A DNA stretch of 64,000 nucleotides, from contig NC_135804.1 in NCBI RefSeq assembly GCF_964213995.1, positions 26,102,001 to 26,166,000 of the forward strand, in the 5' to 3' direction. Position 1 is the first letter of the stretch, and each line of letters starts with the position of its first letter. Positions 753-45,998 of the stretch are shown here, one piece after another. This DNA comes from Mustelus asterias (Eukaryota). A model generated the notes under the pieces. That model made no database searches. It saw nothing but the letters and a program-made list of their open reading frames with translations, and had not been told where the DNA came from. Made by a program: the position numbers and the translations under genes.

Positions 753-1350
753 GGGCGGCACGGTAGCACAGTGGTTAGCACTGCTGCTTCACAGCTCCAG
801 GGACCTTTTTTTTAAACAGGGGGTGAATGTGGTAAACCACTGTTATGTCCTGATAACCACTGTTATGTTCTGATGACTGGACACACCCCTACTGGTGCTG
901 CCTGAGGCTCCTCCCCTGTTCACTGGGGTATAAAGGTGGCTGCTCCTCCCCTTCGCCTCATTCTGGTCCGGTCCCTCGGTTAGAGTTTACTGTAGAGTTA
1001 GTTCCCTTTTATAGTTAATAAAAGCCTATTATTCCAGATTCCATCTCTGGGTGTTGATAGTGCATCACTGGGTTCGATTCCCGGCTCGGGTCACTGTCTG
1101 TGTGGAGTTTGCACATTCTCCTCGTGTCTGCATGGGTTTCCTCCAGGTGCTCCGGTTTCCTCCCACAGTCCAAAGATGTTGATTGGCCATGCTAAAATTG
1201 CCCCTTAGAGTCCTGAGATGCGTAGGTTAGAGGGATTAGTGGGTAAATATGTAGGGATATGGGGGTAGGGCCTGGGTGGGATTGTGGTCGGTGCAGACTC
1301 GATGGGTCGAATGGCCTCTTTCTGTGCTGTAGGGTTTCTATGATTCTATA
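753..1350 (+). mobile_element. tRNA-derived HE1/V-type SINE, split by the LTR insertion
   Basis: Head gggcggcacggtagcacagtggttagcactg, B-box ggttcgattcc, core gtttgcacattctcc...cctccggg. Confidence 0.9.
828..1067 (+). mobile_element. Gypsy-type LTR with its PPT (806-827) inserted in a SINE
   Basis: TGTGG...TATAAA...AATAAAAGCC...TGATAGTGCATCA, similar to the termini of the 16.5-21 kb element; SINE sequence resumes at 1068. Confidence 0.85.
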
Positions 1351-16082: not shown

Positions 16083-16532
16083 AGCTCCCTGTTTATGAAT
16101 TCTAACACCAAGATGGATGAAAAGGAAATCAAGTTTAACATGTGGCAAGAAACAAAATGTGTTGGGATCAGAATAATACTAAATCTTCATTGCAAGTCGC
16201 AGCTTAAAGTCAGCAAGTTTCCATGGCTTTGCATTGCCCTGTAGCTCACCTCAGTTACCTCATCTCTAACCTATTTCTTTTTGGGAATCTCTCTGCGGAT
16301 CAGTGGTGTTTTGCACGTGTCTTTTTATTTTGAGCCGGTCCACATCTTTCCAGCCTGATTTTTAAGCAGCTATTTAGAACTGCCACAAAAGTGATTTCTC
16401 ACTTTTGAATGTTTTTTTCGGCGCTGTTCTTCAAGTTGTGTCACCACCTGTATTCGTCATCTTGGTGTGTGTGCTGAGTTAGTCAAACTGAGCGGGGGGG
16501 GAGGGCAATCACGTTACTACAACTGAACCTGA

Positions 16533-16777
16533 TGATGCGCTATCAATAAGGCGAAAGACTACCGATATGCCAATATAAGTGTAGGCTTTTATTCACAACA
16601 GAATCAGGAGCAGATCCCAACAAATAACCGACCTAGACTGAACAAGGGGGAGGAGACAGCCACCTTTATACTAGGTGCTGAGGGGAGGAACCAAACTGGA
16701 AGAGGATGTGTCCAGGTATGACAAACACACACAACGGTGGTCCATATAGGACAAAGGCACAACTAAGGTCCACCACA
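16533..16777 (-). repeat. 3' LTR of the Gypsy element
   Basis: Direct repeat of 20824-21068, preceded on the - strand by the PPT AAAAGGAAGGGGTGAA (16778-16793). Confidence 0.95.
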
Positions 16778-16828
16778 TTCACCCCTTCCTTTTAAAAAAA
16801 ACAACACGGGGGTGAAGCGGAAACAATA

Positions 16829-19391
16829 TCACAAGTCCAGACGAACCGGTGGCTTGATCCGTCGTCGCGATCGTCGTAGTGCAGGTCGCAGAGTCGTCCG
16901 AGCAGGGAGCGATGTCGGCCCAGGCTCCGTACAGTGAGCGTCGAGAGAAGGCGCTCGGTGGTGTGAAGTGGACCGATCCGTCGTCCCGTCCAGTCGTCGG
17001 GTACTGCGTGGCGACGGCTCCGGCGACTCAAGCGAGCTGTACATAGGGGCGAGAGGAATGAGCTGTGGCCCTGGTGGCGTATGGGGAACAGTGGGAACCG
17101 GAGCTGGGGGGTGGGGGGCTGCAACAGGCTCTGGGCACACTACATTGGGGACAGGGACTGAGGGAGGAAGAGGCGTAGCAGTCTCCGAATGGACGACACC
17201 AGGGAACGTGGGGCGGAAGGACGTGGTGACCTCCGGGGCACCCGCGGGTGCCAAGTCACGGACAGAAACCGTGTCCTCCCGCCCATCAGGGTACGCTACA
17301 TAAGCATATTGGGGATTAGCATGGAGCAGTTGGACCTCCTCGACCAAGGGATCTGCCTTATGGGTCCGGACATGCTTCCGAAGCAGGACGGGTCCCGGGG
17401 ACATCAGCCAATCCGGGAGCGAAGTACCCGAGGAGGACTTCCTGGGAAATGAAAACATCCGCTCGTGAGGGGTCGTATTGGTCGCTGTGCACAAGAGTGA
17501 CCTAATGGAATGTAATGCGTCCGGAAGGACGTCTTGCCAACGGCTGACTGGAAGGCCCCTAGACCGTAACGCTAATAGAACGGCCTTCCAGACGGTTGCG
17601 TTCTCCCGCTCTACTTGACCATTGCCCCTGGGGTTATAGCTAGTGGTGCGGCTGGAGGCAACGCCTTTGGCGAGCAGGTACTGCCTCAGCTCGTCACTCA
17701 TGAAAGAGGACCCACGGTCGCTATGAATATAGGCTGGGAAGCCAAACAGGGTGAAGAGCTTGTTCAGGGTCCGAATCACTGTAGCCGTGGTCATGTCCGA
17801 GCAGGGGAAGGCAAAAGGGAAACGTGAGTATTCGTCAATGATATTCAGGAAATAAACATTGCGGTTAGAGGAGGGGAGGGGGCCTTTAAAATCAACGCTA
17901 AGGCGCTCGAATGCGCGAGTGGTCTTTACAAGGTGCGCCCTACCTGGCCGGTAGAACTGCGGTTTGCACTCAGCGCAGACCCTGCATTGCCTGGTAATCG
18001 TCCGGACTTCCTCAAGGGAGAAGGGCAGGTTACGGGACTTGACAAAATGGAAAAATCTGGTGACACCCGGGTGACAGAGGTCGTTATGGAGGGACTGTAG
18101 CTGGTCTAGTTGGGCACTGGCACATGATCCACGGGACAGGGCGTCTGGAGGCTCATTGAGCTTCCCAGGCCGGTACATGATGTCATATCTGTAGGTGGAG
18201 AGCTCAATCCTCCACCGCAAGATCTTGTCATTCTTAATCTTGCCCTTTTGCCTGGTGTTAAACAGGAAGGCAACTGACCGCTGGTCCGTAATTAAGGTGA
18301 ATCGTTGGCCCGCGAGATAATGGCGCCAGTGCCGGACGGCTTCCACGATGGCCTGGGCCTCCTTCTCAACCGAGGAGTGTCGAATCTCAGGGCCTTGTAA
18401 GGTCCGGGAAAAGAAGGCCACCGGACGGCCCCTCTGGTTAAGGGTGGCAGCTAGGGCAAAGTCAGACGCATCACTTTCCACTTGGAATGGGATGGATTCG
18501 TCCACAGCGTGCATCGCGGCCTTCGCGATGTCCGCTTTGATGTCATCGAAGGCCCGACAGGCCTCCTCCGCCAGGGGAAAAGAGGTCGATTTTAGGAGCG
18601 GACGGGCTTTATCTGCGTAACGGGGAACCCACTGGGCATAATAGGAGAAGAAGCCCAGGCATCTCCTCAGTGCTTTGAGGGTAGTAGGGAGGGGAAGCTG
18701 CATAAGGGGACGCATACGGGCTGGGTCGGGGCCAAGGACACCATTTTCTATCACGTACCCAAGGATGGCGAGGCGGCGTGTCCGGAAAACACACTTCGCC
18801 TCATTGTATGTGAGGTTCAGGAGAGTGGCCGTACGAAGGAATTTTTGTAGGTTGGCATCATGGTCCTGCAGGTCATGGCCGCAGATGGTGACGTTATCCA
18901 GATACGGGAAAGTGGCCCGTAGTCCATGCTGGTCCACCATTTGATCCATGGCCCGTTGGAAGACTGAGACCCCATTGGTGACACCAAAGGGGACTCGGAG
19001 GAACTGGTAGAGGCGGCCATCCGCCTCAAAGGCAGTGTATGGGCGATCCTCCGAGCGGATAGGGAGCTGGTGGTAAGCCGATTTCAAATCGATCGTTGAA
19101 AAAACCCTATAGTGCGCGATGCGGTTGACTATGTCCGCGATACGGGGAAGAGGATATGCATCTAGTTGGGTATACCTGTTTATGGTCTGGCTGTAGTCAA
19201 TCACCATGCGGTGTTTCTCCCCCGATTTAACTACGACCACTTGCGCCCTCCAGGGGCTGGTGCTGGCCTGGATAATCCCTTCCTGGAGCAAACGTTGTAC
19301 CTCGGACCGAATGAAGGCCCGGTCATCCGCACTATAGCGCCTACTCTTGGTGGCTATAGGCCTACAATCCGGGGTGAGGTTATCAAATAAC
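16829..19391 (-). CDS. Gypsy Pol (RT-RNase H-integrase) reading frame
   Basis: RT IDLKSAYHQ, PFG, YLDN; RNase H SDASD/EKEA/TDQ/DALSR; integrase HHCC and D-D-E (VDFKGP, SDRG, ERE); frame stays open upstream of the called start (LFDNLTPDCRPIATKSRRYS). Confidence 0.93.
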
Positions 19392-20799
19392 GGGGGGGGG
19401 GGGGGGTGATCTTGAGGGTCAAGAGACTGCAGGTGGTGTGCGAGGGGCGCTGCCGTGACAGCGCCTTGCAGACGGAGAGTGGGGGATAAGGGCCATCATA
19501 CTGCAGGATGACGCTTCTATGATGGGTGAGGAAATCTAACCCCAGCAGTACAGCTGCGCAGAGTCGCGGCAGCACGAGGAGCCGAAAACGCTCGTAGACT
19601 GTGCCCTGTACCGTCAGCGTCACCAAGCAGCACCCGAGGACCTCCACTGAGTGAGAATTCGAGGCCATGGAGATGGTCTGGCTCCAGGGTCGCATGGGAA
19701 GGGCATATTGACGCACTGTGCGAGGGTGTATAAAACTTTCCGTGCTCCCACAGTCAAACAGGCAGTTTTCTGCATAACCATTTACCTTGATCTCCATTAT
19801 GGACTTGGAGAGTTGATGTGGCTGCGACTGGTCCAGGCAAATCGATGCCACTGTTGAATTAAAGGAGAATCCATCTTCGTCGCCGTCTGATGACGTCACG
19901 GATGAAGCTTCCTGCTCAGCTTGCCTTGATGCCAGTCTCAAAGATGGCGACTCCCGCACTTCCGGTGACCGCATCAAAGATGGCGACTCCTGCACTTCCG
20001 GTGACCGCATCAAAGATGGCGATTCGCGCGCAGCCGCCGCCTGCATCAAAGATGGCCGTGCCCTCGGAGCACACATGGCTCCACGAGTCTTCAGAAGCGG
20101 CTTTGCTCGGCAGACTTTAACAAAGTGGCCTAGCTTACCGCATCCGGAGCAAATCGCGTCCTTTGCCGGGCAGTGACGCCGAGGGTGCTTAGGGAGGCCA
20201 CAAAAGTAACATTTGGGCCCTGCTGGAGCAGCCGTCGCAGTGGAGCCGTCGGTGGAACGGGATCCAAGGTAAGACCCGAGATTATGGGAGGCTGCTTCTA
20301 ACGTTTCAGCCATCGTGGCCGTTTTCCGGAGGTCTAGGTCATCTTGTTCCAGCAGACGCTGCTGGATGTATGTAGACTCAATGCCCGCAACGTAGGCGTC
20401 GCGGATCAGATCCTCCGTGTTCTGAGCTGCTGAAACAGCCTTACAGTCGCATGCTCGGGCGAGGACTCGCAGGGCGCGCAGAAATTGGGCGCACGATTCT
20501 CCTGGCTGCTGTTTGCGGGTAGTTAGGAGGTGTCTGGCGTAAACCACGTTAGGGCTCTTTCGGAACTGCCCTTTTAGGAGTTCGATAGCGTCCGCGTAAG
20601 TAGCAGCGTCCCGGAAGATTCCATAGACAGTTTCGCTTACCCGGGCGCGGAGCACGTGGAGTTTAGCAGCGTCGGTGTCGATGGCCGTAGCGGTGTCGAC
20701 GAATGCTTCGAAGCAGTCCAACCAATGATCAAATTTATCAGAGGCTCCAACCTCTTGAGGGTCTAATGCTAACTTGTCGGGTTTTAGAAACTGCTCCAT
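19354..20799 (-). CDS. Gypsy Gag-protease ORF
   Basis: Two CCHC knuckles (CYFCGLPKHPRRHC, CSGCGKLGHFVKVC) and aspartic protease motif LFDCGS; goes out of frame with pol at the C15 tract (19392-19406). Confidence 0.92.
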   Translation of the reverse strand: MEQFLKPDKLALDPQEVGASDKFDHWLDCFEAFVDTATAIDTDAAKLHVLRARVSETVYGIFRDAATYADAIELLKGQFRKSPNVVYARHLLTTRKQQPGESCAQFLRALRVLARACDCKAVSAAQNTEDLIRDAYVAGIESTYIQQRLLEQDDLDLRKTATMAETLEAASHNLGSYLGSRSTDGSTATAAPAGPKCYFCGLPKHPRRHCPAKDAICSGCGKLGHFVKVCRAKPLLKTRGAMCAPRARPSLMQAAAARESPSLMRSPEVQESPSLMRSPEVRESPSLRLASRQAEQEASSVTSSDGDEDGFSFNSTVASICLDQSQPHQLSKSIMEIKVNGYAENCLFDCGSTESFIHPRTVRQYALPMRPWSQTISMASNSHSVEVLGCCLVTLTVQGTVYERFRLLVLPRLCAAVLLGLDFLTHHRSVILQYDGPYPPLSVCKALSRQRPSHTTCSLLTLKITPPPPRYLITSPRIVGL

Positions 20800-20823
20800 A
20801 CTAGTAACTGTTGTGAATAAAAT

Positions 20824-21068
20824 TGATGCGCTATCAATAAGGCGAAAGACTACCGATATGCCAATATAAGTGTAGGCTTTTATTCACAACAGAATCAGGA
20901 GCAGATCCCAACAATTAACCGACCTGGACTGAACAAGGGGGAGGAGACAGCCACCTTTATACTAGGTGCTGAGGGGAGGAACCAAACTGGAAGGGGATGT
21001 GTCCAGGTATGACAAACACACACAACGGTGGTCCATATAGGACAAAGGCACAACTAAGGTCCACCACA
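20824..21068 (-). repeat. 5' LTR of the Gypsy element
   Basis: On the - strand TGTGG...GCATCA; TATAAA (20956-20961), Inr-like TCAGT ~31 nt downstream, AATAAA. Confidence 0.95.
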
Positions 21069-21563
21069 CCTGACAACTCTGAATTTGAAATAGGGTTAAA
21101 TGTTCATGGTTCCTGCACTTAATTACTATTCGATGACTTGCATTGCACATATGGGTATCCGATGAACACGTTGTGAAATCGTTCAGTTCATATATAAATA
21201 GGGGCCACCAGGGCACATATAGCTGTCAATGAGCAAAATATTGATGCCTTCAAGAGAAAGAGAGCAGAATTTATCTTGGGAGAAGCAGTACCAGGTAAAT
21301 GAAGCAGCTTTGAGTAATGTTGCCTCATTTGTACACGGTGTGTGTACACATTTGTGCACCAAACTTCCAAAATATGAAGTGTAATTTTGTGTAAACACGA
21401 GTTCCCAAGATGCACTGCTGTAATTACATTGTAGAATTTATCTGGAATTGAGACATTCAATCTGTGCTCGCTTTATCCAACTGACTCCCATCTCATTATT
21501 GCAGTAATCCTGTTTGCTCCTTTACCTTATTTTCTCTCTTCTCCTTTTCTTCTATCCTTAAGT

Positions 21564-45710: not shown

Positions 45711-45998
45711 TGTGGTAAACCACTGTCGTGCCTTCGGCACGGTTGAGCTGTATATATTGTTGCCACTACTGTTCGTATATGAGACACTCCCTGACACCTT
45801 TAATTCGGCTGCACCTTTAACTGAAGGCTCCGCCCTCAGGGTATAAAGGCTGCAGCCCTCCCCCTCCGGCCTCAGTCGGGAGATCCTCATGCCCAGTATT
45901 GTTCTGTTTATTGTCTGTTCCACATCGTTCCTTTTTAGCGAATAAAAGCCTTCTGTTCCTGGCAACATCAGCCTTGTCTATTTATCAGACGCGCCTCA
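45711..45998 (+). mobile_element. Solo Gypsy-type LTR
   Basis: Starts TGTGGTAAACCACTGT like the 828 LTR; TATAAA, AATAAAAGCC, ends CA; near-perfect 5-bp TSD TTGCG/TTGCA. Confidence 0.88.

Follow-up and report, generated by a model that had tools for sequence, protein, structure and literature searches.

A probable self-primer ending at the poly(A) signal in a shark Gypsy retrotransposon, with fold-back insertions as candidate records of its ends

Introduction

To our knowledge, Tf1 is the one element in which self-primed reverse transcription has been dissected, and the mechanism is regarded as a mark of the Tf1/sushi group. Tf1 and Tf2 of Schizosaccharomyces pombe, Tj1, Tosmo/Tcry and the Tf1/sushi chromoviruses are Ty3/gypsy elements without a tRNA primer binding site (PBS), in which the PBS is instead complementary to RNA of the LTR. 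The available text on Tf1 describes complementarity between the PBS and LTR-derived upstream RNA, the lack of a tRNA PBS, and the need for a cut 3′ of the pairing arm (PMC7175516, PMC4600332, 10.1101/2022.12.06.519325), and Tf1 cDNA is described, in the portion of the source available, as retaining a primer copy at its 3′ end (PMC11042837). Self-priming has also been predicted from sequence in elements of other lineages, namely the plant Tcn1 chromoviruses and the TAR copia elements (Houba, Osr-1), and an R-internal arm at the poly(A) signal is not mentioned in the available text (PMC6317226). As far as the accessible text goes, self-priming in the literature comprises Tf1/sushi, Tcn1 and TAR copia, with Skipper, GalEa and the bivalve TRIMs as unexplained cases (PMC6317226, PMC5006619, PMC5445492, PMC6934838).

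Other systems resemble the element described here in single features. In fungal GalEa copia elements the PBS is replaced by an inverted repeat, the “Conserved Hairpin Site”; according to the text available, both of its arms lie downstream of the LTR and their sequence is conserved (PMC5445492), whereas the shark element has one arm in the LTR and its sequence covaries. The Saci2/lennie elements of flatworms are likewise animal Gypsy elements, and cestode Saci2 families encode a single Gag-Pol fusion, but the accessible parts of the sources give them a tRNA-Leu PBS and mostly 4-bp target site duplications (TSDs) (PMC4558846, PMC12471100). The 5-bp TSD and the absence of a tRNA-Leu PBS in the shark element rule out this identity. 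No PBS matches occurred in the supplement text of PMC12471100 that was available, and the supplement of PMC6238403, as far as available, holds names and accessions with no motif matches. Finally, Ty3 of Saccharomyces cerevisiae is primed by tRNAi-Met, and the first plus strong-stop DNA that it makes includes a copy of the primer and, according to the available text, is released as a dead end (PMC5371799); unlike its counterpart in the shark element, this product is not complementary to its own LTR. Full-text searches found no description of an internal arm of the present geometry or of fold-back LTR insertions; subscription papers, Repbase, Dfam and GyDB lie outside that scope and may note the PBS.

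Anatomy of the element

The window, a 64,000-nt stretch of the Mustelus asterias genome (NC_135804.1, 26,102,001 to 26,166,000), contains a Ty3/gypsy element on its minus strand that defines family A (Table 1). Its domain order, PR-RT-RH-IN, is that of Ty3/gypsy, as are its TG...CA LTRs, polypurine tract (PPT) and TSD, and the best PDB match of the pol protein is Ty3. In this copy the gag-PR and pol frames break near a C run at 19392–19406, and many sister copies have a single open frame of 1349 aa. The Cigr-1 clade of Ciona intestinalis, with LTRs of about 245 bp and one ORF of about 1200 aa, is by description of similar dimensions to the family A clade. A genome-wide pattern search found 559 exact, normal 5′ junctions, and family A is young. 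The gag N-terminus is 99% identical to an NCBI protein labelled Mustelus asterias, with further relatives in rays, Trichuris and a sea anemone. Within gag, short tandem repeats of ESPSLMRSPEV-like units (19870–20060) lie between zinc knuckle region and protease. Two close relatives of pol are NCBI metagenome records labelled bacterial, which are probably animal DNA in bins.

Table 1. Features of the family A element and its predicted priming signals (positions in the window)
Feature	Position	Strand	Basis
Ty3/gypsy LTR retrotransposon, family A, 4536 bp	16533..21068	-	LTR pair, PR-RT-RH-IN, TSD
5′ LTR, 245 bp, TG...CA	20824..21068	-	LTR pair 99% identical
3′ LTR	16533..16777	-	3 differences from 5′ LTR
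Polypurine tract	16782..16793	-	sequence
TSD TCAGG, left	21069..21073	-	
TSD TCAGG, right	16528..16532	-	
gag-protease frame	19354..20799	-	gag ATG at 20799
RT-RNase H-integrase frame, without chromodomain	16829..19495	-	
TATA box TATAAA	20956..20961	-	same position relative to Inr in 4 families
Inr TCAGT, predicted +1 = A20930	20928..20932	-	31 nt after TATA; copied strand ends here in L168, L181, L182
Putative 53-nt self-primer, RNA start to AAUAAAA	20878..20930	-	copy end points; 53-nt copy in L288
Pairing arm CTGTTGTGAATAAAA	20878..20892	-	complementarity and covariation
AATAAA, likely poly(A) signal in 3′ LTR (predicted)	20879..20884	-	AATAAA/ATTAAA in 15/20 families
Predicted cut	between 20878 and 20877	-	13/17 U5-first by-products turn back here
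Loop, 54 nt (rest of R and U5)	20824..20877	-	template of putative minus strong-stop DNA
Spacer, 1 nt	20823..20823	-	1 nt in all paired families
Primer binding site TTTTATTCACAACAG	20808..20822	-	complementarity to LTR arm
Leader and gag start, predicted pairing with R 20893–20927 in family A	20773..20807	-	z -4.2

A primer site complementary to its own LTR

Read in element sense, the LTR ends in ...GCGCATCA at 20824 and is followed by one A (20823), the motif TTTTATTCACAACAG (20822–20808), an 8-nt leader and the gag ATG. The original prediction had pointed to this arrangement, namely a 15-mer without the TGG start of a tRNA PBS, exactly complementary to a stretch inside the LTR and lying 8 nt from the ATG, and every coordinate that it gave proved correct. 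The two arms are 100% complementary over 15 nt and lie 55 nt apart. Shortened to 14 nt, the motif is present in the window at just three places (both LTRs and the PBS), as against 0.04 occurrences expected. The TGG start is also absent from the PBS of five shark families and of the paired distant families, and no Rfam match was found in the LTR-PBS region. The leader after the PBS is still shorter, 1–5 nt, in several other families.

A PBS complementary to LTR-derived RNA is a feature that family A shares with Tf1/sushi elements, but the likeness is incomplete. The Tf1 primer consists of the first 11 nt of the RNA, whereas TATA/Inr and copy ends indirectly place the family A arm about 38 nt inside R. 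Unlike that of Tf1, the family A arm ends in a poly(A) hexamer, and 35–65 nt separate arm and LTR end in its clade. There is also little room for the second, PBS-adjacent “pretzel” duplex of Tf1, as the clade has almost no leader after the PBS. Tf1/sushi elements carry a chromodomain, and none of six proteins from the family A clade gave a Chromo match at E-values up to 1. With a pairing arm that is predicted not to lie at the very start of the RNA and no chromodomain, two features of Tf1/sushi membership are lacking.

Covariation of the two arms across families

If the two arms pair, relatives should differ in both at once, and the original prediction had named the LTRs at 828 and 45711 of the window for this comparison. 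These belong to families B and C, respectively, and the arms covary in both: full-length copies of family B carry TTTTATTAACTATA opposite TATAGTTAATAAAA, while those of family C carry TTTTATTCGCTAAAA opposite TTTTAGCGAATAAAA. The arms also covary, subfamily variants included, in families D and E, which were found by protein similarity, and one copy (L126) has a private change that is present on both arms. Within D and E, the own-copy match is barely above the cross-copy match (13.05 versus 12.11 and 12.66, of 14).

The family B LTR in the window (806–1067) lies inside a SINE together with its own polypurine tract and upstream T run, has no clear 5-bp TSD, and looks like an aberrant one-ended insertion. 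Other family B copies of about 1.5 kb (L062 and L075, the latter with a 5-bp TSD) have two LTRs and are internally deleted in a TRIM-like manner. The family C LTR at 45711–45998 is not followed by internal sequence, and full copies of that family exist elsewhere (L102, L106, L115).

More distant relatives were sought in metagenomes. A first scan with the gag N-terminus, together with a viral scan, gave no matches, and an RT alignment yielded 80 metagenome loci of 47–67% identity. A usable gag start was present in 37 of these; in the others the RT lay too near the contig start (23), no gag N-terminus matched (16) or too little upstream DNA was available (4). A perfect inverted repeat of at least 10 nt occupied the primer position in 27 of the 37. 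For a wider comparison, 44 regions from this genome and from distant animal-type contigs were entered, six of them without a usable junction, and 25 families were compared; the junction motif, into which the 1-nt spacer was built, served as the sole definition of the PBS. Pairing of at least 11 nt between a family's PBS and its own LTR was found in 20 of the 25 families (18 if the first rather than the best member is used), as against two of 600 cross pairs, so that the predicted covariation with the sequence ending in the hexamer is borne out; five families fall below 11 nt. Pairing ends after 11–16 nt in all families. The arm end is always TAAA(A), mostly followed by (G/A)CC, and lies 35–65 nt before the LTR end; the hexamer reads AATAAA in nine of the 20 paired families, ATTAAA in six, GTTAAA in three and TTTAAA in two.

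Fold-back insertions containing a copy of the putative primer

An arm that serves as primer makes a testable demand on the genome: some insertions should contain the LTR end, the A and the PBS, and then continue with the complement of the LTR part preceding the arm instead of with gag. The exact junction pattern was found at 14 loci in family A, as against the 559 normal junctions, and a relaxed pattern added five further family A loci. Patterns for the other families detected 13 loci in C, E and F and none in B or D, giving 32 loci in four families. A reversed-pattern control had no matches. The patterns demanded at least 4 nt of complement beyond the arm, and hence bare 15-nt primer copies would have been undetectable. 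Most of the loci are small fold-back insertions with 5-bp TSDs. A perfect 5-bp TSD flanks 21 of the 32 and a TSD with one mismatch four more (that of L168 was read on L175), so these were inserted by integrase. Two loci on small contigs, L187 and L188, have the same flanks and represent one event, duplicated or assembled twice. Fold-back artefacts of the assembly are ruled out by palindrome ends at the LTR termini, TSDs and unique flanks. Generic flipping of inverted repeats was considered as well, and one exact pattern for its reciprocal loop-inversion product gave no matches.

Seven of the insertions are palindromes of 436–437 bp, composed of LTR positions 1–245, an A, and the complement of 191 to 1, and both of their termini are U3 ends. 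Their arms differ at 0–3 positions and have variants in common (six were compared base by base), so a single template gave rise to both arms. One palindromic locus, L162 (G000:C6:7021321-7024346), shows eight clustered A-to-G changes, including the TATA box, on both arms; RNA editing before reverse transcription, followed by fold-back copying, is the likely source.

A second class, of 17 by-products, starts with an inverted U5 end. In 13 of these the inverted stretch reverses direction at the base that follows AATAAAA, with a margin of 1–3 shared T, then re-enters U5 and reaches the primer region; the reversal comes earlier in L163 and L285 and later in L287 and L169. A 54-nt minus strong-stop DNA snapping back on itself would give this structure, and the turn-back point also coincides with an imperfect inverted repeat in U5, so that homology alone could place it. 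A single locus, L289 (G000:C24:20592000-20598000), has integrase-coding sequence fused to the LTR precisely where the cut is predicted (ATAAAAGCC), the outcome expected if minus-strand transfer had landed in the wrong place.

End points of the copied strand

The copied strand reaches the LTR start in 24 of the 32 loci, directly in 21 and in three when an indel or LTR variant is allowed for. The other eight end before it. Four of these have ends at or near the predicted +1: L168 (family A) at 137, with +1 at 139; L181 (family F) at 141, with +1 at 142; L182 (family E) at 153, with +1 at 155; and L283 (family A) between about 147 and 138, within about 9 nt of +1. The remaining four end elsewhere in U3 (L165 at 28, L185 at 18, L180 at 39 and L286 at 62). 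That three of eight ends, from three families, should fall 1–2 nt from an Inr A predicted beforehand has a chance probability of about 0.001–0.003. Microhomology to the acceptor is present where joins end at the Inr, 7 nt of it in L168, and the acceptor sequence can account for the additional one or two bases of L168 and L182. In L181, a mini-element of 618 bp with a TSD, the leader is replaced by a 53-nt copy that extends from arm to Inr; a 53-nt copy of the equivalent stretch likewise takes its place in L288. These ends indirectly suggest an RNA 5′ end at the Inr, copied either from an attached primer or in trans from an intact 5′ end.

Predicted RNA start and folding

A TATA box and Inr with a spacing of 31–32 nt are also present in the LTRs of families C, E and F, and they stand 51–74 nt before the arm end in the four shark families. 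A TATA box at the shark spacing was not found in most of the distant families, and the long primer is thus mapped for shark families only. Folding of the 161 nt that begin at the predicted start gives z -4.9 relative to 200 shuffles. In family A, folding predicts a helix between the gag start and the part of R that precedes the arm, and in C and D a weaker one; a clade-wide version of this helix was rejected, as z falls below -1.65 in just four of 20 families. In a comparison with the three-duplex pretzel around the Tf1 PBS, short helices starting at the base after the arm were commoner than in shuffles, averaging 3.95 bp as against 3.0 bp (15 of 20 families, p 0.002), an effect that is weak in each family. 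Of the two expectations about the poly(A) region, one fared well: an arm some 40 nt inside R with a primer 3′ end at AAUAAAA is well supported by covariation and by-product ends. The other, a masking of the poly(A) signal by the stem that is confined to the 5′ LTR, found no support in folding, since the 15-bp helix does form only in the 5′ context and AAUAAA is fully paired there, but the hexamer is predicted to be mostly paired in the 3′ LTR too, and in five of 20 families it reads GTTAAA or TTTAAA. Any 5′-specific masking is plausibly a side effect of the stem, and the need for an R overlap downstream of the cut may be the simple cause of the arm's position.

A model of self-priming and its alternatives

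The reading preferred here, with a probability of about 0.72, is a Tf1-like self-priming in which the first ~53 nt of the element's own RNA, cut after AAUAAAA, act as primer, with the arm inside R. Transcription would start at the Inr (20930), and the R arm (20892–20878) would anneal to the PBS. The 3′ OH of the primer would be freed by cleavage just after AAUAAAA, a step tentatively assigned to the element's RNase H on the precedent of Tf1 (PMC7175516), and the minus strong-stop DNA would then copy only the 54-nt loop (54 nt plus one) before jumping to the short segment that separates hexamer and poly(A) site at the RNA's 3′ end. Plus strong-stop DNA would sometimes copy the attached 53-nt primer, rendering it self-complementary and able to fold back. 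The folded strand would extend to the U3 end and occasionally be integrated as a palindromic or rearranged mini-insertion. Such a hairpin could become double-stranded, with U3 at either end, if synthesis were primed anew from the PPT, as is described for Ty3; a further fold-back or template step is needed for the 24 of 32 copies that run through U3 to the LTR start.

It is conceivable that the arm copy at the 3′ end does the priming instead, either as the U3-R end of genomic RNA, trimmed or cut back to AAUAAAA, or as a short LTR transcript acting in trans. The ending of the arm in a poly(A) hexamer fits this idea, copying of a U3-R primer would give just the 24 of 32 by-products that continue through U3 exactly to the LTR start, and the identical palindrome arms are also compatible with it. 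The three or four copies that stop at the Inr argue against it, as does the U5-first class, which stops at the arm boundary although an uncut 5′ R would let minus DNA reach the cap; moreover, 191 nt of RNA would need to survive RNase H, and the long copies are explained by DNA fold-back. We consider 3′ priming unlikely. Less likely again is a plain Tf1 geometry, in which the replication RNA starts at the arm and the TATA box and Inr serve another transcript. Pairing limited to 11–16 nt in all families recalls the 11 nt of Tf1, Tf2 has alternative start sites (PMC5341516, in the text available), and no TATA at fixed spacing was seen in distant families; yet TATA and Inr are kept 31–32 nt apart in four shark families, copies end at the Inr, and in A, C and D the gag start has a predicted pairing partner in R upstream of the arm.

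A different kind of explanation leaves priming to another route and treats the helix as a regulatory hairpin only, masking poly(A) or switching translation or packaging, with the by-products arising by template switching at the inverted repeat. The arm does cover the hexamer, which is predicted to be fully paired in the 5′ context, and a nascent plus strand pausing in the PBS could fold back as well. We nevertheless judge this quite improbable, as every paired family has the complement 1 nt past its LTR end, the place at which a primer must bind if it is to define the integrase end, as a leader of 8 nt (1–5 nt in several families) leaves no room for another PBS, and as the reciprocal inversion product was absent. 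Priming by a host tRNA or tRNA fragment can be given hardly any credence: the PBS is without TGG, each of about 20 distinct PBS sequences finds its match in its own LTR, and the LTR-PBS region has no Rfam match. The covariation of PBS and LTR also disfavours an internal tRNA segment (half-tRNA) as primer.

Implications for animal Gypsy elements

Self-priming from the element's own 5′ RNA may extend well beyond family A. We lean, somewhat better than evenly, towards a widespread chromodomain-less clade of animal Gypsy elements that has evolved self-priming independently, using a capped R fragment of about 50–75 nt cut after the poly(A) hexamer. Its folded, dead-end strong-stop DNAs would integrate as TSD-flanked palindromic mini-elements that record both primer ends, and some LTR-only insertions would never have been full-length. 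Such a self-pairing clade will be missed or scored down by detection methods that demand a tRNA PBS. Fold-back insertions, in turn, allow a priming mechanism to be read from genome sequence alone, and the query is transferable to other suspected self-primers. They also give rise to 190-bp inverted repeats and to solo-LTR-like insertions that do not stem from recombination. If the model is true, self-priming arose again in a large animal clade, with a longer, internal primer tied to the poly(A) signal, and this link would preserve a short overlap for strand transfer.
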